This document shows positions 2,304 to 31,308 of a DNA stretch of 34,343 nucleotides, in pieces. The first letter of the stretch is position 1. Each line of letters starts with the position of its first letter. This stretch comes from a virus, in the UHGV virus genome UHGV-0071249; one strand, written 5' to 3'. The notes beneath the pieces were generated by a model. It saw only the letters and a list, made by a program, of their open reading frames with translations, ran no database searches and had not been told where the DNA came from. The position numbers and the translations under genes were made by a program.

Positions 2304-2351
2304 TTTGGATTTGGGAAAGCATAAAAAGAATTCTTTTCAAAAGGAGAAAAC

Positions 2352-2504
2352 ATGAAGGAATTGAAATCACATCCTGTGAGCGTAAAACTAAATGATACTC
2401 AAGTAAAGCTACTTGAAAAACTAATACAAGAAGGAAAAGCGAAAACTAAAGCAAGTGCGATACAGTACCTAATCAATCAGTACTCAATACTAAAAAGTAA
2501 GTAA
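2352..2504 (+). CDS. Ribbon-helix-helix (CopG/Arc/MetJ-like) DNA-binding protein, 50 aa; absent from the ORF track
   Basis: ATG at 2352 preceded by AAGGAG (2341-2346); translation MKELKSHPVSVKLNDTQVKLLEKLIQEGKAKTKASAIQYLINQYSILKSK has the beta-strand/helix/helix pattern of ribbon-helix-helix regulators; stop TAA at 2502-2504. Confidence 0.6.
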   Translation: MKELKSHPVSVKLNDTQVKLLEKLIQEGKAKTKASAIQYLINQYSILKSK

Positions 2505-2591
2505 TAAACAACGTTTGATACTATCGTAAAAAGTATTATCTCTTTGTACTGGCAAGGAATGCCAAGTACAAAATATCATGGATGAACCACA

Positions 2592-3083: not shown

Positions 3084-3090
3084 TAAAAAA

Positions 3091-3119
3091 AGGCACTTGG
3101 TCTTACTCACCAAGTGCCT
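3091..3119. terminator. Hairpin terminator (10-bp stem AGGCACTTGG / CCAAGTGCCT) flanked by an A-run and AT-rich tail
   Basis: Perfect inverted repeat 3091-3100 / 3110-3119 immediately after the stop at 3083; A6 upstream and AATTAATT downstream, so it could act in either direction. Confidence 0.5.
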
Positions 3120-3151
3120 AATTAATTAACATCATTTATAAGGTATTTATC

Positions 3152-3637
3152 ATGGCAAACATAGAGAAACCACACGATAACCGTGTAGTACAGAAAGAAG
3201 TAAAAAACATCAAATTCAAAGAACTATCACATGAAGCAGTGGAGGCAATCAATGAGGCTATACAGGGATGTAAATCACTTGGACGTAATAAAGTAGACTC
3301 ACAAGAAATTTATGAAGTTATTCGTAAGTGTGACTACATTACAAGAGCTAATACTCTGTACACTATAAACATTATGCGTAGTACGGGGGCTATCACCAAA
3401 TCACAACTACAGGGTAAATCACAGGAGGATAAGTATAAGACTGTCTCTAAGCTCGTTTCACAGGCTCTAGAGCTACTAATAGTACTGGGCATTCCCCTAA
3501 AAGGTTCAATGAAGCGTGTCGTAAATCAGGTAGCAGGTAAGCAACTGGACGAGCAGCAGCAAAAGGTGTTAGAGGAAAAAGTGAAATCAGGCGTCCCGAT
3601 TAACGATCTAATCAAGTATCTATCGGGATTAATCTAA
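3152..3637 (+). CDS. Hypothetical early protein (161 aa)
   Basis: ORF with AAGG ribosome-binding site 8 nt upstream; no family recognised. Confidence 0.65.
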   Translation: MANIEKPHDNRVVQKEVKNIKFKELSHEAVEAINEAIQGCKSLGRNKVDSQEIYEVIRKCDYITRANTLYTINIMRSTGAITKSQLQGKSQEDKYKTVSKLVSQALELLIVLGIPLKGSMKRVVNQVAGKQLDEQQQKVLEEKVKSGVPINDLIKYLSGLI

Positions 3638-3642
3638 AAGCA

Positions 3643-3719
3643 TTAGCACATAATAGCCCAGACATATGTGCTAATTATGGGCTAATGGGTTAATGATGTA
3701 TGGGCTAATGGGTTAATGA
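3643..3719. repeat. Inverted repeat (TTAGCACATA / TATGTGCTAA) followed by two tandem copies of a 21-bp unit TATGGGCTAATGGGTTAATGA
   Basis: Inverted repeat at 3643-3652 / 3665-3674; tandem units at 3676-3696 and 3699-3719; the loop motif TAGCCCA is the reverse complement of TGGGCTA inside each unit. Confidence 0.6.
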
Positions 3720-3887
3720 AACACTACATATAGTGTCTAATCCATTGTTTTATTGGTATATTTTGTGGTTTTTTAGTAATTGTATGGGGAGTTGTGGCAT
3801 TAGCCCCCCTTATATTAATATTATTCTTTCATTCTTACTTTGAAAGTATATTTGTCTTACTTATATCTAGTCTCTAGAGAGCCTAAC

Positions 3888-3996
3888 TTCGCTTTGCTCG
3901 TTAGTCTCTGTAAAAACCAAATATAAGATCGTAACTTTGCGTTTTTCTCGCTATCGCGTCGAAAACTCGCAAGCGTTTTTCTCGCTTTGCTCGTAC
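3888..3996. repeat. Iteron-like direct repeats (GCGTTTTTCTCGCT twice; CGCTTTGCTCGT twice) in a non-coding region
   Basis: Direct repeats at about 3938/3973 and 3890/3983, read from the sequence; the overlapping minus-strand ORF 3857-4102 is judged spurious. Confidence 0.4.
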
Positions 3997-4251
3997 TTGT
4001 CAGTACTGTCAAAGTAACAAAACCCCAATAGCTACTACCAAAGTAATTAATCAAAGTATTCGTGAGTCGCCACGGAGTCACGCCCGAACGAGCCACCCGC
4101 ACACACCGGCCAAGTCGGATTATTGCTTAAGTAGTCATGGCAGTATAACGAATGCAACGGTACTTAATGAAATACTTGATAAGAAGGCCGATTTATATCA
4201 GAAACTGTTACCATATGCGGTATCGACATAATTCCTATGTACTACGATGAA

Positions 4252-4965
4252 CTATACATAAAATAATTCTTGGAATTTATATGTTCTAATTTTTTCATGG
4301 ATACATTTTCCTTGATAATAAGAGGAAAGAGCTTCGCCATAATTTACTTTGAAATGATGCCCAAAGAGTGCGAAATATCTTTCATCATTTATAAATTCAG
4401 ATAATGCATTTCTTAGGTTAAAAGTAGCATTCGATAAAGACATAATTGTCATTTGATAAGTATCAAGCAGTTGATATATTTCCTTTTCCTTTAGTATTGT
4501 CACATCCCAACGTTTTAATGATGAAAATTTAGAATGCGTATCCTGCAATCTCAATTTGTTATTTTCAATTAATACTCGTAACTCATCAAGTGATTTTATT
4601 ACTCTATTCCTGTCTGCTTGATTGTCAAAGATGTTAGATCGATAGTAGATTTCAGCTTCAGCTAAACTATCTATATAAGAGTTATGGGTGGCAGAAAAAG
4701 TATCAATTTCATTAAGTATAGCTTCAGCTTTTTCCAAACCTAATGTTCGTGTTTTTTCTGATAACCAATTTTTTGCATTAACAGCGGCATATAATGCCGC
4801 CCCGGCCATTATAGCATTACAAAATGTGGATACCCAATCGGAGACACTACCCCATTCAAACCCCTTACTGCCAGAAAATAAAAATTTAACAAGCACCAGT
4901 ATTGCTACCCATAAGAGTATAAGAACAGTAAAAATCAATGCGGTATTATATTGTTTAACTTTCAT
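4252..4965 (-). CDS. Two-TM membrane protein, paralogue A (candidate superinfection-exclusion or abortive-infection protein)
   Basis: N-terminal hydrophobic helix (ALIFTVLILLWVAILVLV), second helix AIMAGAALYAAVNAKNWLSEK, then about 170 aa with coiled-coil character; antisense to the phage operons; paralogous to 32551-33258. Confidence 0.65.
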   Translation of the reverse strand: MKVKQYNTALIFTVLILLWVAILVLVKFLFSGSKGFEWGSVSDWVSTFCNAIMAGAALYAAVNAKNWLSEKTRTLGLEKAEAILNEIDTFSATHNSYIDSLAEAEIYYRSNIFDNQADRNRVIKSLDELRVLIENNKLRLQDTHSKFSSLKRWDVTILKEKEIYQLLDTYQMTIMSLSNATFNLRNALSEFINDERYFALFGHHFKVNYGEALSSYYQGKCIHEKIRTYKFQELFYV

Positions 4966-5175
4966 TTGTTTAAACTTTCAATAAAGGATTTTTACGGGCA
5001 TTCTACCATTTTGTGATTGGATTAGTAACTGTTGTTTGAAGGTTATCATTATCATAACTTAACTTAGGGTTAAGTGCTGCTAAAATTAAATCAGAAATTT
5101 TATGCGGTTTTATTTCCCATTTATGTCAAAATTGATAGTAGTATGGGGAGTCTATACAAAAAGTAGGGATTACTG

Positions 5176-5622
5176 ATGGATACAGTAGAAGAACTTAATG
5201 GAACATACTTCTATGATGGTTCATCCAATCTTAGTGCAGGGGAGCTATTCTTCTGGATCATGGTTGATGAAACATTAGATCACTTTGGTATATCAGACAT
5301 AGCCGCAGTTGCAGGGATCTACCTTGGTTCGAATAATGTCACGGTAGCAGGTAAGCTGGCAGGGGCAACACCCGGCACATCCGTTGTGTCAATCTATTCC
5401 AGGGAATTATTCAGAGGACGAATGATGCCAGTACGAATGGCAACTTGGATTGGATTCCCGCCAAATGCAAAACGAGTTATGACACAGCGATTGGGTACAT
5501 TCGTTGGCAGGACTATTCCTCTTGTCGGTTGGATTGTACTCGCAGCAGACGTTTCTATCATCAGTTTCAAAGCAGTCAATAAGTACAATACAATCGCCCA
5601 TCCTTCAGATCGTCTATGGTAG
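5176..5622 (+). CDS. Small protein with two glycine-zipper-like hydrophobic segments (148 aa); candidate Hcp-associated cargo
   Basis: Segments DIAAVAGIYLGSNNVTVAGKLAGATPG and TIPLVGWIVLAADVSIISF; first gene of a tight three-gene set ending in Hcp. Confidence 0.55.
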   Translation: MDTVEELNGTYFYDGSSNLSAGELFFWIMVDETLDHFGISDIAAVAGIYLGSNNVTVAGKLAGATPGTSVVSIYSRELFRGRMMPVRMATWIGFPPNAKRVMTQRLGTFVGRTIPLVGWIVLAADVSIISFKAVNKYNTIAHPSDRLW

Positions 5623-5629
5623 GTACTGA

Positions 5630-5986
5630 ATGAACGATTCAGATAACATAGAGCAGCAGGTCATGAATTGGTATAACGAGAACTGGAATGGGCGTGTTTT
5701 TCCATTTTTCAGGAAGCCATCATTGACGCTGGAAACAAGCCTATCAACAGGCAAGTATCCTTGGGCAGATGAAGATGCGATAGAGATACTTGATGATTAC
5801 TTTGGGAAGTTCAATGTTGAGCGTAAAAATTTCACATTTGGCAAGTACTGGCCCAATGAAGAAGTAGTACTTCCATTGAATTTTTTACGATCAAAAGATA
5901 ATAAATGGGAATGGATTGAACCAGAACCATTAACACTCAAAATGCTTGTCGAATCAGCTAAGGCTGGTCGCTGGCTTTACGATTAA
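5630..5986 (+). CDS. Small acidic Trp-rich protein (118 aa); candidate immunity or adaptor protein
   Basis: Starts 7 bp after the previous stop; W-rich (NWYNENWNG, KYPWADED, KWEWIEPEP); no family assigned with confidence. Confidence 0.55.
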   Translation: MNDSDNIEQQVMNWYNENWNGRVFPFFRKPSLTLETSLSTGKYPWADEDAIEILDDYFGKFNVERKNFTFGKYWPNEEVVLPLNFLRSKDNKWEWIEPEPLTLKMLVESAKAGRWLYD

Positions 5987-5998
5987 AAGGAGTTTTCA

Positions 5999-6484
5999 AT
6001 GGCAATCCCCGCACACTTATGGCTTAAAGATGATGGTGGAGCATTAATTAAGGGATCATGCGATGTAATGGATCGAGAGGGAAGTGTGGAAATTATTGGT
6101 TTCGGTCATGGCCTACATATTCCTACCGATAATAATACTGGTAAAATTACTGGAACTCGAATCCATACACCGATGGTATTAGAAAAGGAATTTGATAGCT
6201 CTACACCGTATCTCTATAAAGCAGTTGCTACAGGGCAATCGCTTAAAAGTGCCGAAATTAAATGGTACAAGATTAATGATGCAGGCCAGGAAGTAGAGTA
6301 CTTCAATATGCTTCTTGAAGGTGTCAAAGTCGTTGCTGTAACCCCGATAATGTACAATACAAAGACCGTTGAAAAATGTAACCACATGGAGCGTGTAGAA
6401 TTACGCTACGAAAGAATTACATGGAAGTACTGTGACGGTAATATCCAGTATACTGATGCGTGGAATGAACGAGCGACAGCATAG
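5999..6484 (+). CDS. hcp: Hcp (TssD) family type VI secretion tube / effector-chaperone protein
   Basis: 161 aa; N-terminus MAIPAHLWLKDDGG...IKGS.DV.DREGS and later segments (TGK.TGTR.H.P, PYLYKAV.TGQ.LKSAE.KWY.INDAGQEVEYF, LRYE.ITW, WNER) match my recollection of enterobacterial Hcp1 sequences; perfect AAAAGGAG ribosome-binding site 6 nt upstream. Confidence 0.75.
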   Translation: MAIPAHLWLKDDGGALIKGSCDVMDREGSVEIIGFGHGLHIPTDNNTGKITGTRIHTPMVLEKEFDSSTPYLYKAVATGQSLKSAEIKWYKINDAGQEVEYFNMLLEGVKVVAVTPIMYNTKTVEKCNHMERVELRYERITWKYCDGNIQYTDAWNERATA

Positions 6485-6486
6485 TT

Positions 6487-6509
6487 AAAAGGGGCATGTA
6501 CCCCCTTAA
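6487..6509. terminator. Hairpin (AAGGGG-CATGTAC-CCCCTT) between the convergent hcp and 4-TM genes
   Basis: Stem-loop read from the sequence; TTTT follows 3 nt downstream on the plus strand; overlaps the stop codon of the minus-strand gene. Confidence 0.45.
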
Positions 6510-7195
6510 CTTTTATGGCTTTCGTATGTTGGCTCTCGAAATTTAAATATGTGATGTTTCTTACCCATCGAAATAAATTCCTGCGATACTGTTTTACGAC
6601 AAGAAAATACAGTAATAGGAACTGATAGAGAATAAATCACAGTGGAGAGTAATACTATGAGAGGGTAGTGAGAACTAATTAAAATAAGAGACGTAATGAA
6701 ACAAGCAAGCCATAGCATAATCATAAAAGCACTAAGGAATGTGTTTATATTAGAAACCGAGGGACGAAGGTCGTTTATGGTTTTATAGAAAAGCACTTTA
6801 TATAAATTCCCTGTAACATAATATTCTAATTTATCAATTACTAACTCCCAGTTTTCTTGCCAATATTTGCTACCGATATTCACATAATAGAAGCATATTG
6901 AAAATACGGTTCCAATTATTGATATGAATGGTGTATAGGTGATATATTCCGTATGTGTGAAAAGATAACCATAGGCAGCAGTTATAACTGTGAAAAAAGC
7001 AAAAAAATAAGTTGCTCGCTTCCAGTACAAATCAATCTCAAATTTTCTTATATCATGAGCTTTATCCAGTGCGGCTATTAGTTTTTTATGATCTAAAGAA
7101 TCTTCCATAATAATTGTACTGACACCCAAGAATTCTTGGAAAAATTCTTTATCCTCATCTTTTATTACAAATGGTTCTTTTTTTGTATTATCCAT
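6506..7195 (-). CDS. Integral membrane protein with about four TM helices (229 aa), function unknown; candidate immunity or defence effector
   Basis: Soluble N-terminal 60 aa, then hydrophobic helices (FFAFFTVITAAYGYLF; FISIIGTVFSICFYYV; FLSAFMIMLWLACFITSLILI; LIVLLSTVIYSLSVPITVF) with a YWQENWE linker; convergent with hcp. Confidence 0.6.
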   Translation of the reverse strand: MDNTKKEPFVIKDEDKEFFQEFLGVSTIIMEDSLDHKKLIAALDKAHDIRKFEIDLYWKRATYFFAFFTVITAAYGYLFTHTEYITYTPFISIIGTVFSICFYYVNIGSKYWQENWELVIDKLEYYVTGNLYKVLFYKTINDLRPSVSNINTFLSAFMIMLWLACFITSLILISSHYPLIVLLSTVIYSLSVPITVFSCRKTVSQEFISMGKKHHIFKFREPTYESHKS

Positions 7196-8164
7196 AATTT
7201 ATTCTTACAAGATAAAAGGCCAGTATACAATCAGATTTCACTCTCTGTATACTACGCGAAAGTACTCCCCCTTGCTAATGGGTAGGTTTGTTGGGTGTAA
7301 GGGGGTAGTACTCAAAACGGCAGTTCTTCTTGTCCACAAAATCAACCATCTTCATGAAGCCTTGAAATTTCCCTCACCAGATAAGTTAACCCTTCCAGTA
7401 CTGAAGCGATCGGGTACTCCATGATCAAGTAGAAGCAACCTCGCTGAACTGTACCGAATCAGTACTTCCTTTGTCCATTCTGGAAGAAAACACGATCACC
7501 AAATGCAAACTTGTCCAGTACTGAACCGTAGTAACAAACCCTGAATTCACGCTCGCCGTGGGTGAAGGTTTGTACCCCTCGGACGATTGCTGGATCGTAG
7601 CCATTTTTACTCATTTGATGCTCACCATAGGTGTAATGAATATGCATACAGCACGCCTATGTGTTTTTAAAAATCCAGCAAATCACAATCTATCGATAAA
7701 ACTGTTCAAAAATGCATTGAATGATCTATAAAAGTGATCAATATTGATGACTTACGGTCAAATGAGGTCATTAAATGAACATCCAGTACTGGGCTGTACC
7801 GATTACGACTCTTAATGGGCAGTTGCTCGGAGTGGAAATCCAGCCGCAGATAGAAATACACGGCTGTCGGCTCATTGCTGGGGATGTACTGAAGTGGCAA
7901 CTACACGTAACGGAGTGAAGTATTACCGGCCTCAGTTCCAGAGTGATTGCGGTCGCATCTATAATCCAATCTACCAGATGGACAATGGCAGTACTACGTG
8001 TCTAATACGCGAGGAAAGGATTCAAGAATGTATTAATATAGCTAAACAATTATTGAGGTCAAATCATTAATTGATTAAATATATTGGTCATGGTAAAAAT
8101 AATTGAATTACATATGATATCCTCATGCTACTGGTGCTAATAACATAGCATGAGGATATATACT

Positions 8165-9286
8165 TCAACGCACCATGGCTAATGTTCTGGAAATTCGCAT
8201 GATTTCTTTTTCAATATCATCTAAAACAGGTAGTGATTTTCTGCTTCGTTCAGCAATTTCTTGCAATATATATCTGTTCAAATAATTGTTTACATTTTTA
8301 GGATCAAGATTTTCAGGTGTGGGAACAACACAACATTGCCAATAAAAAATCTCATCTTCGAAATGAGTTAGCCATTTGGAGTGATATCTTTCTTTCGATT
8401 TTTTCTTATTAAGCACATAAATGCTGGCTGCAGCTATCACATCAGCAATTTGTATACCATGCGTGACTTTAGAATCAGAAAGGATTATGGGCTCAGATAG
8501 TTTGAATGTGATCGGGATTTTTTTATTATTAAAGGTCTCGAACACAATTTCATCATTACCTATCATCTCATTGAATGCGTCTTGTTGGGTAATTAATGGT
8601 TTTGAACTATCACATATAGCTCTCAATGTACCAAACTTACTACTCATATCGCATAAGAGATTATAAAGAGAAGTCGTTGTCAAATCTAACAACCATTTAT
8701 CAACCCCAGTGCCCTCGAGACCTTCATATTCCTCTTCAATTATTGAAATGTTATGCTTGGCGAAATCATGAATGTCCATCATAATTTCAGAGTTTTTAGT
8801 ACCAATAACTGGTTCGATAAAACTATTAACTAATATTTTACCTCGTGAAAAATCTTCAAATCGAGAATGCAATAGTTCAGAATACTCATCCTTAGCTATT
8901 AAAGAAAAATACATTATATTGGATATGAATAGGTGGAATTTAAGGTTGTAAAATATTGAGCTTTTAGCTGCTAATACTGGCTCGAAAATATATTCAAAGA
9001 ATTTTCCTGAAAGGGCATATTTCTTTTCGTTAACAACCACACGCATACGTCCACGGAAATGATTAAGTATCTCATCTACGGCTGGTTGTAATCTCTTGCT
9101 ATTAACGAGAGTGCTACCTTTTAGCTCTTCGGCTGCGATCGAGTACTTTTGTATTATGTAATCTACAAACTGTTTACTTTCCTCTTCATCAGTCACGACT
9201 GCAGCGTAACTAAAAAAAGGCTGATCTTTTGAAAGTAAGTTATTACCTGTAAACCCTGATTCGTCGAAGTAGACATTTTTTACCAA
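8165..9286 (-). CDS. DUF3800-like protein (373 aa), antisense cargo gene immediately upstream of the late operon
   Basis: N-terminal VYFDESG and C-terminal GIQIADVIA motifs, which I recall as the two signature motifs of DUF3800; TTG start with GAAGGA ribosome-binding site about 9 nt upstream. Confidence 0.6.
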   Translation of the reverse strand: MVKNVYFDESGFTGNNLLSKDQPFFSYAAVVTDEEESKQFVDYIIQKYSIAAEELKGSTLVNSKRLQPAVDEILNHFRGRMRVVVNEKKYALSGKFFEYIFEPVLAAKSSIFYNLKFHLFISNIMYFSLIAKDEYSELLHSRFEDFSRGKILVNSFIEPVIGTKNSEIMMDIHDFAKHNISIIEEEYEGLEGTGVDKWLLDLTTTSLYNLLCDMSSKFGTLRAICDSSKPLITQQDAFNEMIGNDEIVFETFNNKKIPITFKLSEPIILSDSKVTHGIQIADVIAAASIYVLNKKKSKERYHSKWLTHFEDEIFYWQCCVVPTPENLDPKNVNNYLNRYILQEIAERSRKSLPVLDDIEKEIMRISRTLAMVR

Positions 9287-9495
9287 TTTGGATATTCCTT
9301 CTTGAACGGCAATGTGTATGTGCTTGCAATGTTACATTGTAATAATGATCAAGTAAAATGAAATGTAAGTGCTTTTAATCAACCTAATTAAGTGAAACTA
9401 ATAATTTAGGTACTCCTCCAGCCTGATTATCAACGCGAGTTTTCGGCACCGATTGCTTTCAATTGTATGTGACATTTTAGATGTACACAAAACAT

Positions 9496-15901
<6,406 letters not shown>

Positions 15902-15906
15902 TATAT

Positions 15907-16200
15907 ATGAGAGGATTTAGTAAAGCTCAAAAAAGATCACTACTAGATTCTTTCGGTGAAGATCTCGTCATTGTTCAGGATGGAGTAACAAGTACTGTTA
16001 CAGTGATATTCGAGCAAGACGAGATTTTTTTTGAAGATGCAGAATCTACCGTGAACTATTTCACTTCTGAAACTGGTTTACCAGTGGGTATTACTTTTGA
16101 ACATAATGGCACTACCTACATAGTAAATAGAATAGATGATGATTTGAGTGGAATCTCAGATTATCACTATATTCAACAGATTAATTTAGAGGATATCTAA
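15907..16200 (+). CDS. Small head-tail joining or head completion protein (97 aa), by position
   Basis: Directly follows the capsid gene; no family recognised. Confidence 0.45.
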   Translation: MRGFSKAQKRSLLDSFGEDLVIVQDGVTSTVTVIFEQDEIFFEDAESTVNYFTSETGLPVGITFEHNGTTYIVNRIDDDLSGISDYHYIQQINLEDI

Positions 16201-16201
16201 T

Positions 16202-16639
16202 ATGTACACGGCAGACTATACAATCAGAAAGTACCTAACCAACAGATTAAGTACTAAAGCGAATCTTCATTTTCCATCGAAAGCATCAGTAGATAAAAAA
16301 GCTATGGTTTATATTGGGGAAAGTTCAGTAATGAGAAATAAGATTCCTCAAAATATGCCAGTAATCGCGGCACAAATAGTACCGCAAGAAGTACAAAACC
16401 TTTGTGAATTTCGTATTGATTTCGTATCAGTTGCCGAAGACTTTAAAAATGCCTCAGAAGAAATTGAAAAGATTCTAGAGGCAATTTTTGCTAAGGGATT
16501 CTTAGATGATTTAAACAAACTACTAAGGATGCCAATTTATAATGTACTAGTTGGTGATAGTTTAATGACAACTCAAGCCGAAGCACAAAAAACAATGTAT
16601 GTACATACGCAATCAATTACATTTAGCTACGGGGAATAA
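16202..16639 (+). CDS. Putative tail completion / terminator protein (145 aa), by position
   Basis: Between head genes and tail genes; no family recognised. Confidence 0.45.
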   Translation: MYTADYTIRKYLTNRLSTKANLHFPSKASVDKKAMVYIGESSVMRNKIPQNMPVIAAQIVPQEVQNLCEFRIDFVSVAEDFKNASEEIEKILEAIFAKGFLDDLNKLLRMPIYNVLVGDSLMTTQAEAQKTMYVHTQSITFSYGE

Positions 16640-16641
16640 TA

Positions 16642-18324
16642 ATGTCATTCTTAACTAACTACACAACAGTGTGGATTAATACTAACACACTTAATACCGA
16701 TCCAAATTCAAAAGCATTTGAACAAGTTGAAAAGCTGGCTTCATTTCCAGTAGTAGGTGCTACCACACAAGTTACTTCAATTGAACCATATAATTCTACA
16801 TTTATGGCTAAAGAAGTTGGTGATATGTCTCATAATGACGTAACGATCACCGTTAATTGGGTTCCATCCGTACACCAATTTCTAGATGATTTAGTATCTT
16901 CTGGTGAAGAAGTTCAGATGAAAATTGAAATGCCAGATGAAGGTGCAGATGATACTACCGTTCCATATGCAATGTATAACGGTGTTCTTACATCTACATC
17001 AACTGCTGGTAGTTATGATAATGTAGTAACTAAAACATATACCTTTGCACCAACTGCATTAGTAAGTGCTGGTATACTTGATGAAACTACAGTACCGCTA
17101 AACCGTGGTGATTATGGCGTTGGCTCTAATGGAACTACTTTCCCAAGCTGGCAAGAACGCGACGGTAACGGATTTATTAAGATTCCATCTACTACTTCAC
17201 CAACTGGTACTGATGTTCTAGGTATTAATAATCTTGATACAAACTTTGGTACTCAATTAGTAATTAGTAAAACTGGTACACCAATTATAAACGTCCGTAA
17301 CTACGGAACATCTATGGGTGCATGGTACAAAGTCTATACAAGTGCAGATAAACCAACACTAACAGAACTTGGTGCAGCCTCCAGTGCAAGCCTAGATAAC
17401 TATGTACTAAAAACACAGACAATAAACGGTAAACAGCTAACGGGGAATATTACCCTTGTAGCCGCAGATATCTCTGATGTGTACTCACAAACTTATATCA
17501 CTAATACATTTGTTCCAAAAGTATTTCAGTTAAATGGTCATGCACTATCTGGTACTTCATTAAACTTGGTTGCGGCAGATATTTTAGATGTGTACTCACA
17601 GACACAAACTAATACTAACTTTGTTGCAAAGACTCAGACGATTAACGGCGTGGCATTAAGTGGGAATATTACACTAGGTGCAGCACAACTAACCGATATG
17701 GCAAGTCTAAGCTATAGTAACAGTACTTTTGTACCTAAAACATTCTTAGTGAATAACAAGGCACTTACTGGTACTAACATTCAACTTGTAGCCGCAGATA
17801 TTTCAGATGTGTACTCACGTACCCAATCAAATGATCTATTTGCACTACGTATCACCCGTATTAATGGCTATGCCCTAAACAGTGATATTACTTTGAACTA
17901 TGATGATGTTGGAACATATTCAAAGAAACAAATTGATGATAAAGACAAGGTATTACAAGCCAATATTGATACAAAAGTAACAATTGTAGATGATCTATTA
18001 GCACTAAATACACTCACAGGCACTAGCCTAGAGATTGATTTATCAGATAGTAAGACTGCATTCACTGTTACACTATCAGCAGGAACAACTAATTTTACCA
18101 TTGTTAACGCAAGTGGTAATAGTAAGAATACTCAATCTTTCACTGTAGCTATGAAACAAGGCACAGGGGCAAATAAAATATCATGGCCTGATTCAATTTT
18201 ATGGTCTTATGGGCGTGTACCAGTACTGACATTTACGAAAGATTCAACAGATGTATTCCAGTTTGTTTCTTATGATGGTGGTAGTACGTGGTTCGGCTCC
18301 TTACTAATGGCAGATCTACACTAA
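16642..18324 (+). CDS. Tail protein with an N-terminal tail-tube-like domain and C-terminal phage tail-fibre repeats
   Basis: Residues about 20-140 align with the 156-aa tube protein at 21200-21670 (VEK[VL]A[AS]FP, TVNW[IV]P, TAG.[FY]D, YTF); then four copies of a roughly 38-aa repeat (TQTINGK.LTGNITLVAADISDVYSQT). Confidence 0.65.
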   Translation: MSFLTNYTTVWINTNTLNTDPNSKAFEQVEKLASFPVVGATTQVTSIEPYNSTFMAKEVGDMSHNDVTITVNWVPSVHQFLDDLVSSGEEVQMKIEMPDEGADDTTVPYAMYNGVLTSTSTAGSYDNVVTKTYTFAPTALVSAGILDETTVPLNRGDYGVGSNGTTFPSWQERDGNGFIKIPSTTSPTGTDVLGINNLDTNFGTQLVISKTGTPIINVRNYGTSMGAWYKVYTSADKPTLTELGAASSASLDNYVLKTQTINGKQLTGNITLVAADISDVYSQTYITNTFVPKVFQLNGHALSGTSLNLVAADILDVYSQTQTNTNFVAKTQTINGVALSGNITLGAAQLTDMASLSYSNSTFVPKTFLVNNKALTGTNIQLVAADISDVYSRTQSNDLFALRITRINGYALNSDITLNYDDVGTYSKKQIDDKDKVLQANIDTKVTIVDDLLALNTLTGTSLEIDLSDSKTAFTVTLSAGTTNFTIVNASGNSKNTQSFTVAMKQGTGANKISWPDSILWSYGRVPVLTFTKDSTDVFQFVSYDGGSTWFGSLLMADLH

Positions 18325-21146
18325 TGATTAGAAAACACAATTTAGATAACGCGTATCAAATGGTAGAGGGGCAATTTAAGTTCCTCGCCAGAAACACCGG
18401 ACTAACAACCGATAATAAAACTCAGCACTATGTTTTAAATCCAGATAATGTACTTGCAAACAATAGACACTTTATCGCACAAACTCAGTGGGAAGCACAA
18501 CCAGATGGTGATGCAACTACCGAAGGACAATCCCTACAAATACTAGGTGCTATTCACTGCTACCAAGCAACTAAAGAACCATACTATCTAGAGAAAGCAA
18601 AAGAATATTTTGATGCATATCATTTAGCATTCTATCGTGGTGTACCATTTCCAGATCCACCAAGTACGGCATTACGTTGTAATTGGATTTGTAATGGTAA
18701 GGCTCCAGTACTGGCAAACTACCCACTAGATCCCGAATATCCGACACATGGCGGCTTTAAAGGGGTGTTATTCAATTGGGTAAATGGACAAACTAAGATA
18801 CCTTCTGGTGCTCCAAACTATGGTGAGTACTTGGACGCTGTATGGTTCGCCTTTCCAGAACGTGCATCACTAGGTTGGAACCAAGTTAACGCAACTGCAT
18901 ATATGTGGTTAGAAGACGGTACAACTGATTGGAAGACCAAAGCACCAACTTATGATGTAGATTGGATTATCGACCGTACAGGCCGCAAGGTTGACAGTAA
19001 CGGTGATGTACTGGAACAGGGAATAACAAGCCAGATCGGTACAGTACAGCTTAAAGATACTTCTATTAATGGTAATTACCGTTTCAACTATGCAACACGT
19101 AACCCCGTAGAACATAGCGGTTATATGTTTAAACGTAATGAACGTTGGCACAACCGCCCGGTAAACGTACCAATTGATAATTACGGTAGTCTTGATTTCG
19201 CTGATAATGCATCAGATGCTGAATTGTGGTTCTGTCTTGCATCTAAAATGCTATGGGATATTACAGGGGAACGTAAACACTATCTAGCGTGGCAGTGTTC
19301 ACTACTTACTTGTTATGGTTATTCAGATATTGATAGATTTGATATGTTCTTCCGTAAGAGTACAATTGCAACAACGCCATTCACTGATGGTATTTCATAT
19401 GATTATTTCTACCCAAGTGATCGAATTGCAACTTATTCACGTGATGCCGAAGGTTATATTGTAATTAATCAAAGTGCATCAGCACAGACTACCCTAGAAC
19501 AACAATCAATTTGGTTTAAGTTTAATAATAACTCAAAATTCCATATTGAATGTGGCGGTGTTGATACTACTGGTGTAGCTCTAGGACTCGCTGTTAAAAT
19601 GACAGTGAATAAGACGAAAGTAGAAGAGGGTTCAACACTATACCGTTGCGGTATTCCAAATACTAACCCAAATGGTTCTATTACGGTAATGGATGTACCA
19701 ATGAATCACTTTACCCGTGTTAAACGTCCTGATGGTGGTGAATACCTAACCGCAGATATGCGTAATGTCTCTGATTATGGTTCTAATACTGTCACTAGGT
19801 TTGAGTATGTATCTGGAATAGCTGGTAAGTACTATGACAACGTAATCACCAGTACTATGGATGGTGACGGCGGGATGGTTGTAGGATTCTATATCTATGA
19901 CGATGAGAGACAAGATTTAAAATCATTCACCTATCGTACATATAATGATGACTTTAACTTACGTGTTACCGATCCAGATGGTTGGAGATGGTGGACTATG
20001 TTACCTGCTAGTGGTGGTGAATGGGTAACTAAAGATTTAACGCAGTTAGATTTTAAACTAAACAGTTATCAACCAAACCACGTAGAAGGCGATGAGCAGC
20101 CCGCAGCAGTGACATTAACACAACTAGAGGACTTTACCTTACTATTAGATGATGACCCGATAGACGGCGTTTCAGGGCGTATAGATTGGTACTGTATAAA
20201 CGATCTACCAGAACTATATAACGATGGCGGTACTGGTGACTATTCTGTACTAGTTAATTTAACATTCAATGACAGTACTGATAGTGGTTATACGGCACGT
20301 CTTGGTAACTGTACTATCAGAGACTATATGTTAGATAGCCTTGCATATACTCCCGGTCTAATACCGTTCAGTAACATTACAGATCCATATGCACAGTTAT
20401 ATTCTGGCTGGCGTGGTCTTCCGTATCCGGGCTACCAATTACCTACAGTATGGTGTTTTAAAGGAACTACTATTGATACAGTAAGACTAAATAATAGTAT
20501 CAAGTTCTTATGTGATTCACAGGACGGGTTTACTAATAAATTTCATCCTACTGTACCAGGTCCATGTGCTCAGGCGTTTGTATGGAACCGTCAGGACGCA
20601 TTAGCGTACTTACCAGCAGGTGAGAAAGTAGATACATTCATTATGGATCACTGGTATTCAGAGGCTTGGTCTGGTTATGAACCACGTGCATTCTATGCAG
20701 GATGTAACGTAGTATATGAATTATGGTCACGTGGTGATTATGCAATCCCCTCTAATATAATTCAGTACTGTAAAAACTGGATGAATTACTTGAAATGGTT
20801 TATGAAAAATAATGATGGTCATGCACCAACACGTTTCAAAAACAATGGTGAAGTAATTTATGATGGATTTACCCCTCATATGTCAGGACTATGGTTAGCA
20901 GGTGCTTGTTCTATGGCAATTGCTGGTTATCCAGATGATGAGTTAATACAAATGTTGTTTGATGAAGTACAAAGTTATTATGAGGTAATCACGTCAAATC
21001 ATGTAATGAATGGTACGTGGGCAGCCGCTATACGTTCTGGTACTCCAACTACGGCAGAAAACAATAGTATGTTCTTTGGCTTTTATAGCGGGGAAGTACT
21101 AAGAGGATTAGGACTATATATAGAGTACTACAATCTTCATAAATAA
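18324..21146 (+). CDS. Large tail-associated protein (940 aa), possibly an enzymatic (glycoside-hydrolase-like) tailspike or fibre
   Basis: TAATG-coupled ATG at 18324; N-terminal region (QSLQILGAIHCYQATKEPYYLEKAKEYFDAYHLAF) is reminiscent of alpha/alpha-toroid glycosidases; lies between the fibre-repeat gene and the tube gene. Confidence 0.5.
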   Translation: MIRKHNLDNAYQMVEGQFKFLARNTGLTTDNKTQHYVLNPDNVLANNRHFIAQTQWEAQPDGDATTEGQSLQILGAIHCYQATKEPYYLEKAKEYFDAYHLAFYRGVPFPDPPSTALRCNWICNGKAPVLANYPLDPEYPTHGGFKGVLFNWVNGQTKIPSGAPNYGEYLDAVWFAFPERASLGWNQVNATAYMWLEDGTTDWKTKAPTYDVDWIIDRTGRKVDSNGDVLEQGITSQIGTVQLKDTSINGNYRFNYATRNPVEHSGYMFKRNERWHNRPVNVPIDNYGSLDFADNASDAELWFCLASKMLWDITGERKHYLAWQCSLLTCYGYSDIDRFDMFFRKSTIATTPFTDGISYDYFYPSDRIATYSRDAEGYIVINQSASAQTTLEQQSIWFKFNNNSKFHIECGGVDTTGVALGLAVKMTVNKTKVEEGSTLYRCGIPNTNPNGSITVMDVPMNHFTRVKRPDGGEYLTADMRNVSDYGSNTVTRFEYVSGIAGKYYDNVITSTMDGDGGMVVGFYIYDDERQDLKSFTYRTYNDDFNLRVTDPDGWRWWTMLPASGGEWVTKDLTQLDFKLNSYQPNHVEGDEQPAAVTLTQLEDFTLLLDDDPIDGVSGRIDWYCINDLPELYNDGGTGDYSVLVNLTFNDSTDSGYTARLGNCTIRDYMLDSLAYTPGLIPFSNITDPYAQLYSGWRGLPYPGYQLPTVWCFKGTTIDTVRLNNSIKFLCDSQDGFTNKFHPTVPGPCAQAFVWNRQDALAYLPAGEKVDTFIMDHWYSEAWSGYEPRAFYAGCNVVYELWSRGDYAIPSNIIQYCKNWMNYLKWFMKNNDGHAPTRFKNNGEVIYDGFTPHMSGLWLAGACSMAIAGYPDDELIQMLFDEVQSYYEVITSNHVMNGTWAAAIRSGTPTTAENNSMFFGFYSGEVLRGLGLYIEYYNLHK

Positions 21147-21199: not shown

Positions 21200-21670
21200 A
21201 TGGCATTTAAAAATATGTTTATGGCTAACAATGTCAAAGTTGAGATTGCTTTAGCTCCTGTTAGTGGTGTTGCAACAACCTTTACTGTAGTTGAGAAGGT
21301 AGCAGCTTTCCCTGCCGTCGCGGGGGCAGAAACCAATATGGCTACTGTGAATAGTTTCGGTGAACTTTATGCAGAGAAACTACCTGGTTCTAAAAACGTT
21401 CCTGATATTTCTCTAACTGTCAACTGGATTCCTGGTGCAGTTGGTCAAGAACTACTTAACACTTATGCAGATAACCTAACCAAAGTACAACTACGTGTAA
21501 CTTACTATGAGAACCTTACTGGTACTGATGGTGCTTCTTACTTCCAAGTTGTTAACGGTTATATCTCTACTAACACTACTGCTGGTGATTTTGATTCACA
21601 AGCACAACGTGAATATACATTTGTAGTTACTGGTGCTCCAGTTGCAAGCGGTGAAACTGCTGGTGACTAA
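21200..21670 (+). CDS. Major tail tube protein
   Basis: 156 aa, immediately upstream of the chaperone pair and tape measure gene; paralogous to the N-terminus of the 16642-18324 protein. Confidence 0.7.
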   Translation: MAFKNMFMANNVKVEIALAPVSGVATTFTVVEKVAAFPAVAGAETNMATVNSFGELYAEKLPGSKNVPDISLTVNWIPGAVGQELLNTYADNLTKVQLRVTYYENLTGTDGASYFQVVNGYISTNTTAGDFDSQAQREYTFVVTGAPVASGETAGD

Positions 21671-21707: not shown

Positions 21708-21998
21708 ATGAACCTAAATGATTTAATGAGCGTGATTGGAGTAAAAACCCACGAATTTGAACTAGCACCAAATGTAGTTGTGAAAATTCGTATGCCTTCA
21801 CTAGCTCAATATTCCCAATGTACTACACCATTCAAAATTATCTATCATTGTGTAGTTGATGACGAAGGTAAACCACTATTCGAATCACCAGAACAGATTG
21901 AAGAAAACGTAGAATTATCAGTACAGATGAAACTAAGCCAAGAGATTGATCGTATCTTCTCTGAATCAATAAATATTGATAATATTGAAAAAAAGTAA
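21708..21998 (+). CDS. Tail assembly chaperone (lambda G-like)
   Basis: 96 aa, between tube and tape measure; ends in the slippery heptamer A_AAA_AAG. Confidence 0.65.
   Translation: MNLNDLMSVIGVKTHEFELAPNVVVKIRMPSLAQYSQCTTPFKIIYHCVVDDEGKPLFESPEQIEENVELSVQMKLSQEIDRIFSESINIDNIEKK
21989..21995 (+). promoter_or_regulatory. Programmed -1 ribosomal frameshift site (A_AAA_AAG) giving a G-T-like chaperone fusion
   Basis: Heptamer is in the correct register of the zero frame; the -1 frame is open from 21995 and runs in-frame into the 22055-22384 ORF. Confidence 0.6.
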
Positions 21999-22054
21999 GA
22001 AGCGATCCGTTTCTTGCACTAACTCTAAAACTAATCCGTAATAAGGGGTGTGGT

Positions 22055-22384
22055 GTGGATGAACTCTACACCATGCCCCTTTTGCTTTTCTTTTATATAT
22101 ACGTCTATGACACAGTTATAGACCCAAACTCAGCACAAGTAGATCAAATGCGTCATTGTGAAATCATGCAAGCTCTATGGTTGAGTACTGGAAATATCAG
22201 AAAAGAAGATATGCACAAGTTCAGTACTAAAGAATTCGATTCACTAGGATTGCTTAGTAATAAAACTCGTGCAGAACAGGCAGAAGAAAGAGCAGAGAAG
22301 GAGAAGCAGATCGCAGAAGAACAAGCAAAACAACAGCGTGCAAACATGCTCGCATGGATGGGAGTAAAGCCAAATGGCAAATAA
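22055..22384 (+). CDS. T-like extension of the tail assembly chaperone, probably expressed mainly as the -1 frameshift fusion from 21708
   Basis: Same frame as the -1 frame of the upstream chaperone gene; GTG at 22055 with AAGGGG could also allow independent initiation. Confidence 0.55.
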   Translation: MDELYTMPLLLFFYIYVYDTVIDPNSAQVDQMRHCEIMQALWLSTGNIRKEDMHKFSTKEFDSLGLLSNKTRAEQAEERAEKEKQIAEEQAKQQRANMLAWMGVKPNGK

Positions 22385-24833
22385 AAAACAATCAATGATT
22401 TTTGAAATCACAGGTAATGAATCTGGCTTGAAGCAATCATTGAAAAATGCGGGTAATAGTTTATCCGAATTCAATAATAAAGCTGGTGGTGCATTTGGTA
22501 ACGTAGATGAGTTACTAACATCTACTGGTGCAGCTTTCGGTACTTTTGCAGGTGGTGTAGGTATTGCGGCAACCGCAGCAATGGTAGCTATCAGTAAGAT
22601 GCAAGTACAAGCAGAAAAGGCATTTGAAGTATTCCAATCTGCGAGCCTTGCACAAACTGGTATAGAGAACTTACAGAAGCAAGCTAATATGTTTGCCGAA
22701 GTAGGTTTAACTATGGATAACGTAGCAGACCAAATTAAGGATAGTAAGGATAAGTTGGGCGATGCCTTAACTAACCAAGCTGGTTCTATGTATACTGATG
22801 TTATTCAGCCTCTTAAGTTGAATATCATAGAACTACAGAAAGCCGCTGATGGTGGTGAAGATATTATTGCAAAGATTTACTATCAAGCTAAACAAATGGG
22901 CTTTAGTCAATCCCAGATCATTAACATGTTAGAAACTGTAGCAAACGATGCAGATAAACGTATGACTATCTACCAACGTTTCAACAGTGAACAGGAATAT
23001 CAAAATCAACTAGCAAGTGAAAGCGTACAACTAACTGGTGAACAGTCTAGCCAGTTCCAAGCATACCGCAAATCTACACAAGAACTAAGTAAGGCGTGGG
23101 AGGCTTGGAATAATTCTGCTTTAGCACCAGTAGCGGCTAACCTTGCAGATATTCTAAACCTAATGACCAAGATCCTTAATAGTAAGCCAGTAGCAGCCGC
23201 AGCAGCAGCTACAAGCCGTGAAGGTATCGCAGCAGTACAGGAATACCAGAAAGGTTATCAGCAAGATATTCTTAAGAACTCTTCTATCTATGGTGCTCAA
23301 TTAGTTGAAGAACAGCAAAAGGACGCGGCACGTAACCAGAAAACTTTTGATAATATGTTAGCAAATCTTGATAAGGCTAATAACCTTATTCAGAAACAAC
23401 GTGAAGAGTACAATAAAGGATTCGAAAAAAGTACTATCAATGCTGCAATGAAGCCTTTCCAAACTGCTAAACAAGAAACACAATCTAAAATTGATGCTCT
23501 TGATAAACAGTATAAAGATACTCGTGCGGCAATCCAGCAATCATTACTAAAAGGATATCAAGGTAATCAAGATGCATTGAATAAAGACTTAGCTACACTT
23601 GATGCTGGTTATAAAGAAACACGTGCAGACCTCGTTAAGAAACTAACTGAAAGTGCAGATAAAGCCGCAGCCTCAGCAGCTACAAAAGCCGCAGCAGCAG
23701 CTAAGAAAGCCGAAGCCGAAGAAAAGCAACGTCTTGCCAAACAAGTACAAGCTCAGAAAGTACTAGATCAGACTATGGCAGCAATGGGTGCTAATGCCGC
23801 TCAGGTGAAGTTACAACAATTCAATCTTCAACAAAATGAAATTGAAAAACGTATTAAGGAATCAGCAGCACTAACTAAAAAGAGTGAAGATGAAACTAAT
23901 GCAATGTTGAATACTCACTATGCAGACCGTGCACGTAATTACAAAGAGATGGTTGATCAGATGTTGGCAGAGAATGACCGTTTGAAACAAGCTCAGAACA
24001 TCGCAGCCATCGCAAATGATCCAAATGCCACACCAGAACAAAAGGCAGCAGCCGCAGCCGCTGGTAACAAGTGGGCTACTAATACTGCTACTCAGGGATT
24101 AGGTTATCAAGACCCATTCAATACACAGGCAGACCCAACTAAGTTAGCCGCTATTGGTACAGAACAGCAGAACAACAAGGACGGGGCAAAGGCTCTTTAT
24201 GATGCAAAAGTAATTGGTTTCCAAGAATATCAAGATCAGCTTACAGCTATTCAGACTAATGCAGATATTAAACGTGCTCGTGCTACTGCTGATGCATTAA
24301 ACGGTACTATTGGCCTTTGGGGTAATGCCGCTGGTGATATTGGTACTACTCTAGCTGGTGCTTTTGGTCAGGGCAATGACGCCGCGAAAGCGTTTTTTGC
24401 AGTACAGAAAGGTATTGCTATTGCTCAGTCAATTATCAATATCCAACAGGGTATTAGTGAGGCAACCAAATTAGGCTGGCCTGCTGGTATTGCCGCTGGA
24501 TTAAAGGTAGCAGCAGAGGGTGCAAAAATTATCAGTACTATCAAAGGTACTAATATTCAAGGTCAAGCCCATGATGGTTGGGATTCATTACCAAGTACTG
24601 GTACATATAATCTTGAAAAGGGTGAACGTGTTGTAGGTAAATCACTAAACCAAGATCTTACTAACTATCTAAAAGATGGTGGTAATAAATTATCTGGTGA
24701 AATCAAGATTGAAGCACCATTAGTAATTCAATCAAATGGTGATATTACTGATAAGGACTTCACTGAAATGTGTAAAAAACATGCTGATGTTCTAGTACAG
24801 GCAGTACGCCAATCACAACAACGCAACGTCTAA
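22374..24833 (+). CDS. Tape measure protein
   Basis: 819 aa, Ala/Gln/Lys-rich coiled-coil with hydrophobic glycine-rich segments; directly downstream of the chaperone pair. Confidence 0.85.
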   Translation: MANKKQSMIFEITGNESGLKQSLKNAGNSLSEFNNKAGGAFGNVDELLTSTGAAFGTFAGGVGIAATAAMVAISKMQVQAEKAFEVFQSASLAQTGIENLQKQANMFAEVGLTMDNVADQIKDSKDKLGDALTNQAGSMYTDVIQPLKLNIIELQKAADGGEDIIAKIYYQAKQMGFSQSQIINMLETVANDADKRMTIYQRFNSEQEYQNQLASESVQLTGEQSSQFQAYRKSTQELSKAWEAWNNSALAPVAANLADILNLMTKILNSKPVAAAAAATSREGIAAVQEYQKGYQQDILKNSSIYGAQLVEEQQKDAARNQKTFDNMLANLDKANNLIQKQREEYNKGFEKSTINAAMKPFQTAKQETQSKIDALDKQYKDTRAAIQQSLLKGYQGNQDALNKDLATLDAGYKETRADLVKKLTESADKAAASAATKAAAAAKKAEAEEKQRLAKQVQAQKVLDQTMAAMGANAAQVKLQQFNLQQNEIEKRIKESAALTKKSEDETNAMLNTHYADRARNYKEMVDQMLAENDRLKQAQNIAAIANDPNATPEQKAAAAAAGNKWATNTATQGLGYQDPFNTQADPTKLAAIGTEQQNNKDGAKALYDAKVIGFQEYQDQLTAIQTNADIKRARATADALNGTIGLWGNAAGDIGTTLAGAFGQGNDAAKAFFAVQKGIAIAQSIINIQQGISEATKLGWPAGIAAGLKVAAEGAKIISTIKGTNIQGQAHDGWDSLPSTGTYNLEKGERVVGKSLNQDLTNYLKDGGNKLSGEIKIEAPLVIQSNGDITDKDFTEMCKKHADVLVQAVRQSQQRNV

Positions 24834-24844: not shown

Positions 24845-24866
24845 AAGCCCACGATCATGTGGGCTT
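24845..24866 (+). terminator. Hairpin (AAGCCCAC-GATCAT-GTGGGCTT) after the tape measure gene
   Basis: 8-bp perfect stem followed by ATTT; overlaps the GTG used by the ORF track for the next gene, which supports the ATG at 24886 as the real start. Confidence 0.4.
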
Positions 24867-24885
24867 ATTTGAAAGGATTAGAATA

Positions 24886-25440
24886 ATGTTAAATAACGCA
24901 ACAATAAGTGACTTTGTACTAAGTGATAATGTACCACTATTTCAACAAAAAACATGGACGGGTGAACAAATTACACGCGTAGTAGGTACTGAATACTTTA
25001 GTATCTCTTTTAAAGTCACGATGAACAAACAATATAGAGCAGAACTATCAAACTTTTACGCACAGTACGCACAAGGTAAACCATTTGATATGTCTCTTGG
25101 TTGGTGGGGTAAGTATACGGGTAATCAAACTGCTAACGTACAGGCAACCGCAGCACGTGCAGCAGGGGCTACATCTATTGCCGTAAACTCAAATAGACTT
25201 GAAGTCGGTTCACTAATTCAGTTCAACGGACATAAGAAGCTATACCGTATTATTGCAAATAGCGGTACTACTATGACTATTTTCCCCGGACTAATTAAGA
25301 ATATCCAATTAGGTGAAGTAATCAAATACGATAACCTTTCTGGTTCTTTCGTACTAACTACACAAAATTCACAGTTTTCATTCCCAAGTAATAACCTAAT
25401 CGGAGTAACAATTCAGGCAACAGAAAATATCAGAGGTTAA
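24886..25440 (+). CDS. Minor tail protein (distal tail / gpM-position)
   Basis: 184 aa from ATG 24886 (AAAGGA ribosome-binding site); first gene after tape measure. Confidence 0.5.
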   Translation: MLNNATISDFVLSDNVPLFQQKTWTGEQITRVVGTEYFSISFKVTMNKQYRAELSNFYAQYAQGKPFDMSLGWWGKYTGNQTANVQATAARAAGATSIAVNSNRLEVGSLIQFNGHKKLYRIIANSGTTMTIFPGLIKNIQLGEVIKYDNLSGSFVLTTQNSQFSFPSNNLIGVTIQATENIRG

Positions 25441-30385: not shown

Positions 30386-30853
30386 TTACTTCCAGTTTAA
30401 TTGATTATTCATATCATCTACACGTGATTTTGTCTGCTTATACCATAGTGAATCTATAGATTCCCTACGCATACCAATGCGATCACCATTCTTTGCAGCC
30501 GCAAGTAATTTTTTGAATTTACTTGTACCCGCCAATCCCAATTGAAATATCATAATAATAAGATAATCTTCAATGTCTTTTGGAAGTGTACCTAGATTAA
30601 GTGTACGTAGTCCTGCTTTTGCCTTTTCGATATCATGAGCTAATAGTATATCTGCCTCAATTGGTGTAATCCCATTACTGAAATCTTCACCTTTCTGTAC
30701 TAGGTGTCCTGCCCCAACAGTGAGATAGCCCAAGCTATCTTTATATGGGTAATATTTCCCTTGTCGATAATAACCTTTATATGTTTGGTATAGTTGATCG
30801 CCTTCATATTTCCAAAGGCGTGTTTTAATGTCTGCCATTACTAAATACTCCAT
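30386..30853 (-). CDS. Endolysin, T4-type lysozyme (glycoside hydrolase family 24)
   Basis: Motifs YEGD...YKDSLGYLTVGAGHL, IMIFQLGLAGTSKFKKLLAAAKNGD and WYKQTKSRVDDM parallel the T4 lysozyme catalytic and C-terminal regions. Confidence 0.8.
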   Translation of the reverse strand: MEYLVMADIKTRLWKYEGDQLYQTYKGYYRQGKYYPYKDSLGYLTVGAGHLVQKGEDFSNGITPIEADILLAHDIEKAKAGLRTLNLGTLPKDIEDYLIIMIFQLGLAGTSKFKKLLAAAKNGDRIGMRRESIDSLWYKQTKSRVDDMNNQLNWK

Positions 30854-30855
30854 AA

Positions 30856-31308
<453 letters not shown>

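Follow-up and report, generated by a model that had tools for sequence, protein, structure and literature searches.

A diverged duplicate of the tail tube protein as the putative anchor of side tail fibres in a group of lambda-like prophages

How side fibres are attached to the tails of lambda-like siphophages is known for a few models only. The question is raised by the virus genome UHGV-0071249, an E. coli prophage and a stretch of 34,343 nucleotides (nt) which was analyzed at its full length and is referred to below as the window. Two plus-strand open reading frames (ORFs) are central here, one of 560 amino acids (aa) at 16642-18324 and one of 156 aa at 21200-21670, the latter coding for the major tail tube protein. 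A first-pass annotation of the sequence proposed that the N-terminal ~140 aa of the longer protein are paralogous to the tube protein and are followed by fibre repeats and a C-terminal domain. What, then, might a second tube-like protein with a fibre behind it do? According to our analysis, the 560-aa protein would serve as an accessory side tail fibre, with its N-terminal ~240 aa acting as the anchor in the form of a low-copy in-line ring or half-ring of the tube paralogue, a reading to which we give about an even chance of being correct. In such a design, for which the phage's own tube protein was duplicated, the diverged copy and a small beta domain make up the proposed anchoring module, and the side fibres are probably plugged straight into the tube.

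The paralogy was borne out at the level of both sequence and predicted fold. In a BLASTP comparison with the 156-aa tube protein, aa 1-153 of the 560-aa protein were 29% identical across an aligned stretch of 119 aa (E 2e-15). Both proteins matched PHROG 158 'major tail protein' (1.8e-16 for the 560-aa protein and 6.5e-16 for the 156-aa protein), and with Pfam Phage_TTP_12 the former scored 26.7 bits at a cut-off of 26.1, the latter 19.2 bits. Comparison of the N-domain family alignment with the tube family alignment via hhalign gave 99.9% probability and an E-value of 1.7e-31 over 150 columns; the match spans the entire tube protein, N-terminal arm included, and a long-loop motif is common to the two proteins. 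The AlphaFold2 model of aa 1-250 had a predicted local distance difference test (pLDDT) score of 77 (all structure predictions in this work are monomer models). Its best matches among Protein Data Bank (PDB) entries, found with Foldseek, were lambda gpV (8iyd_A at 3e-7; 7t4f, 8k36), YDC107, NF5, 80alpha and Hcp, and the informatively named top matches among the BFVD viral models were major tail or tube proteins. The predicted fold of the N-domain is nearest to lambda gpV and other true tube proteins and not to terminators or distal tail (Dit) proteins. Alignment and structure prediction, the checks which had been suggested for this claim, thus returned significant similarity and a tube fold. 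The slot of the major subunit, directly upstream of the G/GT and tape measure genes, is taken by the 156-aa protein and not by the 560-aa one.

The tube-like domain (aa 1-145; 16642-17076, plus strand) is followed by a putative flexible linker and a conserved beta domain of ~95 aa (aa 146-240; 17077-17361, plus strand), delimited from the family alignments and the model. The beta domain is marked by the motifs GDYGVGS, GNxFIK and W.KVYTSADKPT..ELGA, the last one generalized in the family to the end motif W.KVYT..KPT..(E/D)xGA, and the residues G156, G159, G175 and N176 are invariant in both the broad and the narrower family alignment. Residues ~150-170 were poorly predicted (pLDDT 50-54) and are read as the flexible linker, whereas strands were modelled at aa 177-231. 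We will call the two domains together the N-module.

A word-indexed search with aa 1-250 found only three proteins, and an exhaustive HMMER search was used instead. It returned 143 cluster representatives, 110 of them 500-1563 aa long. The long family members listed match at their own N-terminus over ~235 residues, and plain tube proteins of ~150 aa came up with much weaker E-values. Behind the conserved N-module the family members carry unrelated fibre regions, so the tube-like domain and the ~95-aa domain form a portable N-terminal module placed in front of very different fibre bodies. All named family copies with a fibre are annotated as "hypothetical protein". PDB sequence searches with profiles of the N-module, of the terminator and of the stopper, with the distal part of the fibre and with the 940-aa product of the next gene gave nothing significant, and no NCBIfam family matched any of the four proteins tested.

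A related motif was seen outside the N-module. The GenBank record of Escherichia phage DCP80 (L001, PQ671644; 141 kb), classified as a T4-like Gaprivervirus, opens with the complete head-and-tail module of a lambda-like siphophage of the present prophage group, spanning the genes between terminase and tape measure (429-16019); the record may be a chimeric assembly or contain a prophage contaminant. At the C-terminus of its 698-aa fibre (7905-9998) the end motif of the N-module recurs weakly as VYS..RPTA...GA...DFG (pairwise E 0.021), which might represent a peptide that can be reused as a junction or for docking the fibre protein that follows.

The shaft of the 560-aa protein (17410-17958, plus strand) consists of four clear repeats of 36-37 aa at aa 257-402, arranged in an A-B-A-B pattern with 22/36 and 21/36 identities between the alternate copies, and a degenerate fifth copy at aa 403-439. 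The best windowed self-score of the repeats was 63 in comparison with 18.9 +/- 4.5 in 200 shuffles. Hence, the four repeats of roughly 38 aa noticed at first sight were essentially right. Their assignment to the Pfam Phage_fiber_2 type did not hold: neither the whole protein at E <= 1 nor the repeat region at E <= 10 matched this family, and no other Pfam repeat family was hit. The repeat region matched instead the tail-fibre PHROG 23008 (aa 250-434, 5.3e-19) and tail fibres of Vibrio phages.

The oligomeric state of such fibres may be judged from the relatives. Peptidase_S74 is a trimer-dependent intramolecular chaperone and a hallmark of homotrimeric fibres. It was found at the C-terminus of seven of the eight long family members tested, one of which also has the gp37 trimerisation region. 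The Pfam scan did not detect Peptidase_S74 in the window protein, the C-terminus of which is occupied by a PHROG 9017 domain. The S74 domains in the relatives imply that the fibres are trimers, and trimeric fibres would have to enter a tail as three-subunit units.

The C-terminal domain (aa 450-560; 17989-18324, plus strand) was anticipated correctly, and its match to PHROG 9017 (aa 414/450-557, 1e-29) led to a second component of the system. In the phi92-like phage inny, residues 450-557 have a counterpart in inny_111 (45% identity, E 2e-30), a protein of 157 aa that stands alone. The next gene downstream of inny_111 codes for a homologue, at 55% identity, of the ~950-aa tail protein encoded behind the fibre gene in the window. 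This partner protein, 940 aa long from the ATG at 18324 (18324-21146, plus strand) and matching PHROG 2871 with 1224 bits, is putatively a distal receptor-binding or glycosidase-like protein. Its homologues (30-55% identity) occur in 531 phage records, where some are annotated as tail fibre or, in a few records, as glycosyl hydrolase; the C-terminal domain matches 516 records, with nearly the same phage sets and matching genus counts. The C-terminal domain and the 940-aa protein therefore constitute a two-gene cassette (17989-21146 in the window; 5516-8865 in locus L091) common to phi92-like myophages, and spread over about 520 records of phi92-like (Justusliebigvirus), rV5-like, Salmonella, Erwinia and Vibrio phages.

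The ATG of the 940-aa gene overlaps the stop codon of the fibre gene (TAATG) with no Shine-Dalgarno sequence in front of it, and in a homologous E. coli prophage locus the Prokaryotic Genome Annotation Pipeline likewise annotates a 4-nt overlap of the fibre and partner genes. The adjacency, the shared phage sets and the stop/start overlap suggest that the two genes are inherited together and coupled in translation; the 560-aa protein would then be the adaptor fibre carrying the 940-aa protein, with the C-terminal domain as the putative docking site.

The surroundings of the fibre gene are conserved. In about 70 loci, on viral contigs and in enterobacterial prophages, the terminator gene is followed by the N-module fibre, tube, G/GT and tape measure genes, the fuller order being capsid, a ~100-aa protein, a ~130-160-aa protein, the N-module fibre (560-1400 aa), tube, G, T and tape measure. 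The extra ~950-aa gene after the fibre gene is present in the window's clade only. The 145-aa protein encoded directly upstream of the fibre (16202-16639, plus strand) matched nothing in Pfam, PHROG or NCBIfam, and its family is labelled 'hypothetical protein' in all sources. Its AlphaFold2 model (pLDDT 87.5) had tail terminators as all top Foldseek matches in the PDB, namely T5 p142 (8bcu/8bcp), R4C (8gtf_k), lambda gpU (3fzb) and the NF5 neck, and we assign to it the gpU / T5 p142 fold.

The paralogue itself was considered as the tail terminator, the gpU slot lying two small genes from the capsid gene. This candidate was rejected: the N-domain matches tube proteins, and the terminator role is filled by the 145-aa neighbour. 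With the latter as the terminator, the neck comprises three components, the gpW-like adaptor, the stopper and the terminator. This is also the case in roseophage R4C, where a tail-completion protein is likewise missing (PMC10276861).

The position between the terminator and tube genes, kept in about 70 loci, raised the possibility that the paralogue forms the last tube ring right under the terminator and that the fibres are collar- or whisker-like structures near the head. The fibre gene starts 2 nt after the terminator stop codon, which would favour equimolar synthesis of the two proteins and perhaps a pre-formed cap complex. The gene order in lambda-like tail modules is usually colinear with the parts of the tail from proximal to distal. 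A tandem duplication of the tube gene is, however, the simpler explanation of the gene position. Moreover, with a tail of roughly 120 nm, a length deduced from the tape measure of 819 aa, fibres as long as these would, if placed at the neck, be unable to touch the cell along with the tip, and the known extra tube-like rings, T5 p140 and T4 gp54, are distal. On balance we find a head-proximal ring unlikely.

How the paralogue arose was asked with a tree, in which N-domains and tube proteins are reciprocally monophyletic. Within one genome the N-domain and the cognate tube protein are 22-33% identical, and the mean identity among orthologues amounts to 51% for tube proteins and 42% for N-domains. 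Since the two groups are reciprocally monophyletic, the phylogeny indicates one old tandem duplication and subsequent specialisation.

Expression signals differ between the two copies as well. The stopper, terminator, fibre and 940-aa genes are packed with gaps of 1-5 nt (5, 1 and 2 nt) or an overlap, and the 560-aa gene is without a strong Shine-Dalgarno sequence. In front of the tube gene (21200-21670, plus strand; named 'phage tail tube protein' in sources) there are a separate spacer of 53 nt and an AGGA Shine-Dalgarno sequence. Packing of the fibre gene with genes of the six-copy stopper and terminator, the separate spacer and Shine-Dalgarno sequence of the tube gene and the strong divergence of the two proteins suggest a low copy number of the paralogue.

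These data bear on the possibility of a bottle-brush tail, in which the 156-aa protein and the tube-like domains would polymerise together, the latter being scattered at random over many positions so that fibres stick out along the whole length. The paralogue retains the whole tube domain, with the N-terminal arm and the shared long-loop motif, and its sequence shows no obstacle to insertion, whatever the level. Mixed tubes do exist: SPP1 combines plain and extended tube subunits at a ratio of 3:1 (PMC8718954), and Nocturne116 has mixed 3+3 rings of two tube-fold proteins (PMC13595954). In the known mixed systems, however, the tube domains are identical and the longer form comes from frameshifting, whereas here the identity between paralogue and cognate tube protein has fallen to 22-33% although both are under selection in one virion. 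The gene packing and the want of a strong Shine-Dalgarno sequence tie the gene to the six-copy neck proteins, and trimeric bodies would need three adjacent sites for each insertion. We therefore regard random co-polymerisation as distinctly unlikely. Of the two roles envisaged in the first-pass annotation, the tube-like domain as an anchoring module for a side fibre stood, being well supported by the portable N-module, by its stand-alone 277-aa form and by its loss in nested lineages (see below); display along the whole tail is the less likely role, as the divergence, the low-copy gene packing and the trimeric fibres lean indirectly against it.

The N-module is also found without a covalently linked fibre. 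Prophages of E. coli, Shigella and Proteus encode a stand-alone N-module of 277 aa which ends just past the KVYS..RPT..DVGA motif. In the split locus of the E. coli/Shigella type (L170/L171; 8001-13557 in L170) the gene for the 277-aa module is followed by a separate one for an 1146-aa fibre with Gp34_trimer and S74 domains, the tube gene and then a T4 gp38-like gene (Gp38_N), which thus lies inside a siphophage tail module. Of 5426 complete E. coli genomes, 55 contained a region matching the split form. The annotations under these matches read tail fibre, three or four hypothetical proteins, in most cases Gp38, and tube protein; the 277-aa module is among the hypotheticals, and bar one UniRef label "Phage tail protein" it is called 'hypothetical protein' throughout.

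Further loci have lost the fibre. In L141 (7399-7860) a 153-aa remnant of the tube-like domain only is left, the fibre part having been deleted. In seven loci the fibre gene is missing altogether, and the tube gene follows the terminator gene directly (as in L144, 7509-8447). In the tree of tube proteins L144, the representative of these seven, is nested within the lineages that have the fibre, and the fibre-less state therefore probably goes back to a secondary loss. The fibre-less loci mean that tails of this phage group can be built without the N-module. The stand-alone form together with the loss in nested lineages therefore suggests that the N-module is a dispensable anchor.

The remnant in L141 might also speak for another possibility, that the tube fold is not in line with the tube at all and either binds Dit, the hub or another site laterally, or belongs to a decaying duplicate with no role in the virion. 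The tube fold has indeed been recruited to many non-tube jobs, among them those of terminators, Dit proteins and hub domains. Against this, the full tube domain with its ring-stacking arm and long loop has been kept over deep divergence in hundreds of genomes, and a six-fold ring of the tube fold would have the tube's own diameter and could hardly encircle it. A purely lateral or decaying module seems to us very improbable.

For the preferred reading, an anchor built in line as a low-copy ring or half-ring, the following course of assembly may be envisaged. The fibre body would trimerise first, leaving three tube-like domains per fibre on flexible linkers. These domains would then replace tube subunits in line, forming a half-ring or else a dedicated ring with six chains and hence two fibres. 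If T5 p140 is taken as the analogue, the most likely place would be distal, in the first ring built on the platform of the distal tail protein, and the normal 156-aa tube protein would polymerise above it. In the window's clade the short fibre would serve as an adaptor, its C-terminal domain holding the translationally coupled 940-aa protein, with a putative role in surface recognition or glycan degradation. The whole module would be optional, as related phages appear to make their tails without it.

Several observations weigh against this course. An in-line ring, wherever it sits, has to match the tube protein with both of its faces. To mount three-fold fibres on a six-fold ring, the linker of 20-30 residues would have to bridge neighbouring subunits. 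The 560-aa protein itself is without S74, and its trimeric state is deduced from relatives and from the repeat type. With its location between those of the terminator and the tube, the fibre gene could speak just as well for a head-proximal ring. Correlations of the N-domain distance matrix with those of the stopper, terminator, tube, G, Dit, tape measure and tip proteins over 43 loci were all 0.88-0.94 and so did not discriminate between partners; the capsid and portal values in the same comparison were oddly low, probably as a result of ORF picking. Besides the module inside the DCP80 record, the phage collection contained no cultured phage bearing the gene.

The N-module keeps both stacking faces of a tube subunit, which might allow entry at any level of the tube. 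A variant of the in-line anchor can thus be conceived in which the N-module is a self-inserting 'plug': the trimeric fibre would enter the growing tube anywhere, its positions being set only by the expression ratio. We attach a low probability to this variant, comparable to that of the random co-polymerisation discussed above. If true, it would mean tails studded with long receptor-binding fibres and the possibility of grafting any fibre, fused or split, with no need for a docking site on the baseplate.

The family is widespread in enterobacterial prophages, including those of E. coli, Klebsiella, Enterobacter, Shigella and others. The exact 560-aa protein was found on 133 contigs of E. coli assemblies, always as 'hypothetical protein', and its relatives are encoded by chromosomal prophages of Pseudescherichia, Buttiauxella, Phytobacter, Pluralibacter, Enterobacter, Scandinavium and Klebsiella. 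Regions matching the split form are present in about 1% of complete E. coli genomes and those related to the window form in about 0.1%. Exact window proteins are present in many E. coli draft assemblies; among the complete RefSeq E. coli genomes no near-identical DNA was detected, the best match being about 75% identical. The phage collection likewise held no near-identical DNA, and the plasmid collection gave no protein match.

The fibre protein is a 'hypothetical protein' in every named source, which is an annotation gap worth closing. The family suggests a simple solution to the problem of side-fibre attachment, that is to copy the tube protein and hang the fibre on the duplicate. A conserved anchor with swappable fibre bodies is the type of module used in re-targeting phages and tailocins, and the distal cassette common to phi92-like myophages shows that receptor-binding parts move between tail types.

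The remainder of the window fits a lambda-like siphophage. Its morphogenesis module, with all genes on the plus strand, begins with the small and large terminase, a gpW-like protein, the portal, a protease-capsid fusion and the 97-aa stopper-like protein, continues with the 145-aa, 560-aa, ~950-aa and 156-aa proteins described above, and ends with the G/GT chaperones, tape measure, Dit (24859-25440), two tip proteins and a gpJ-like central fibre; a large serine recombinase gene and lysis genes lie on its flanks. The tail assembly chaperones G and G-T (21708-22384, plus strand) were recognized by a slippery site and an open -1 frame: the canonical A AAA AAG lies at 21988-21995 (within 21988-21998), right before the G stop codon, and the T frame is open from 21989. 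The tape measure protein of 819 aa (22374-24833, plus strand) matched PHROG 13674 at 1.7e-46.

In the head module, which has distant kin in VP882, phiHAP-1 and roseophage R4C (26-32% identity), the capsid is fused to an HK97-type prohead protease (659 aa; 13922-15901), the longest ORF of the fusion having a TTG start and overlapping the portal gene (12478-14019) by ~100 nt. Two endonuclease genes, for an HNH endonuclease and a homing-endonuclease-like protein, were noted at 2592-3083 and 30880-31308; the gene at 30880-31308 sits between the tail and lysis genes and adjoins a minus-strand lysozyme gene (30386-30853). The G+C content is ~38% throughout the window, far below that of the chromosomes of the Enterobacteriaceae hosts.

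Finally, we compared the system with those described. The full-text literature search retrieved no description of a fibre with a tube-protein N-terminus; the precedents found were T5 p140, SPP1 gp17.1* and Nocturne116. In T5, p140 is a duplicate of the tube protein. It makes up a single ring, with the tube on one side and Dit on the other, and a collar serves it to hold the side fibres; the authors of that work noted that side-fibre anchoring must differ in other siphophages (PMC10038345). T4 gp54 is an extra ring similar to p140. Like p140, which holds dispensable side fibres in line with the tube, the paralogue in the window derives from a duplication of the phage's own tube protein, has diverged from it and is encoded separately. 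T5, however, uses three proteins for the purpose (the p140 ring, the Ig-like p132 collar and the L-shaped fibre pb1), whereas here the paralogue is fused to the fibre or encoded beside a separate fibre gene; no collar protein was identified in the window, where a p132 homologue was not searched for. T5 p140 is trimeric, contains two tube domains and shares 9% identity with pb6, while the present paralogue has a single domain and is about 28% identical to its tube protein. Its gene is next to the tube gene, and that of p140 is among the baseplate genes.

The two-domain architecture of the N-module resembles lambda gpV with its C-terminal Ig-like domain and SPP1 gp17.1* with FN3, in which a tube domain carries an outward accessory domain thought to aid adsorption; full-length gpV was the best structural match to the modelled N-module. 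The extension of gp17.1* is dispensable (PMC8718954), as the N-module appears to be. The decorations of gpV and gp17.1* are small monomeric domains on the major tube protein or on its frameshift product, in contrast to the separate gene for a long, presumably trimeric fibre of 560-1560 aa described here. Similarly, the SPP1 gp17.1* and lactococcal extensions are recoded from the tube gene and have identical tube domains, whereas the present gene lies 2.9 kb upstream of the tube gene and its product shares 29% identity with the tube protein. The phi92-like and rV5-like myophages have the cassette genes in the same order (157-aa protein 45% identical, ~950-aa neighbour up to 55% identical), but there the small protein is free-standing and attaches to the baseplate of a contractile tail, while in the window it is grafted onto the tube-paralogue anchor of a lambda-like siphophage. 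The pair is not mentioned in the fibre section of the phi92 structure paper.

By function, the closest known system is therefore T5 p140/p132/pb1, and by architecture lambda gpV and SPP1 gp17.1*. New in relation to them are the single-domain tube paralogue fused to or paired with long, probably trimeric fibres, the occurrence of fused, split and lost states, and the wide, hitherto unannotated distribution of the family.

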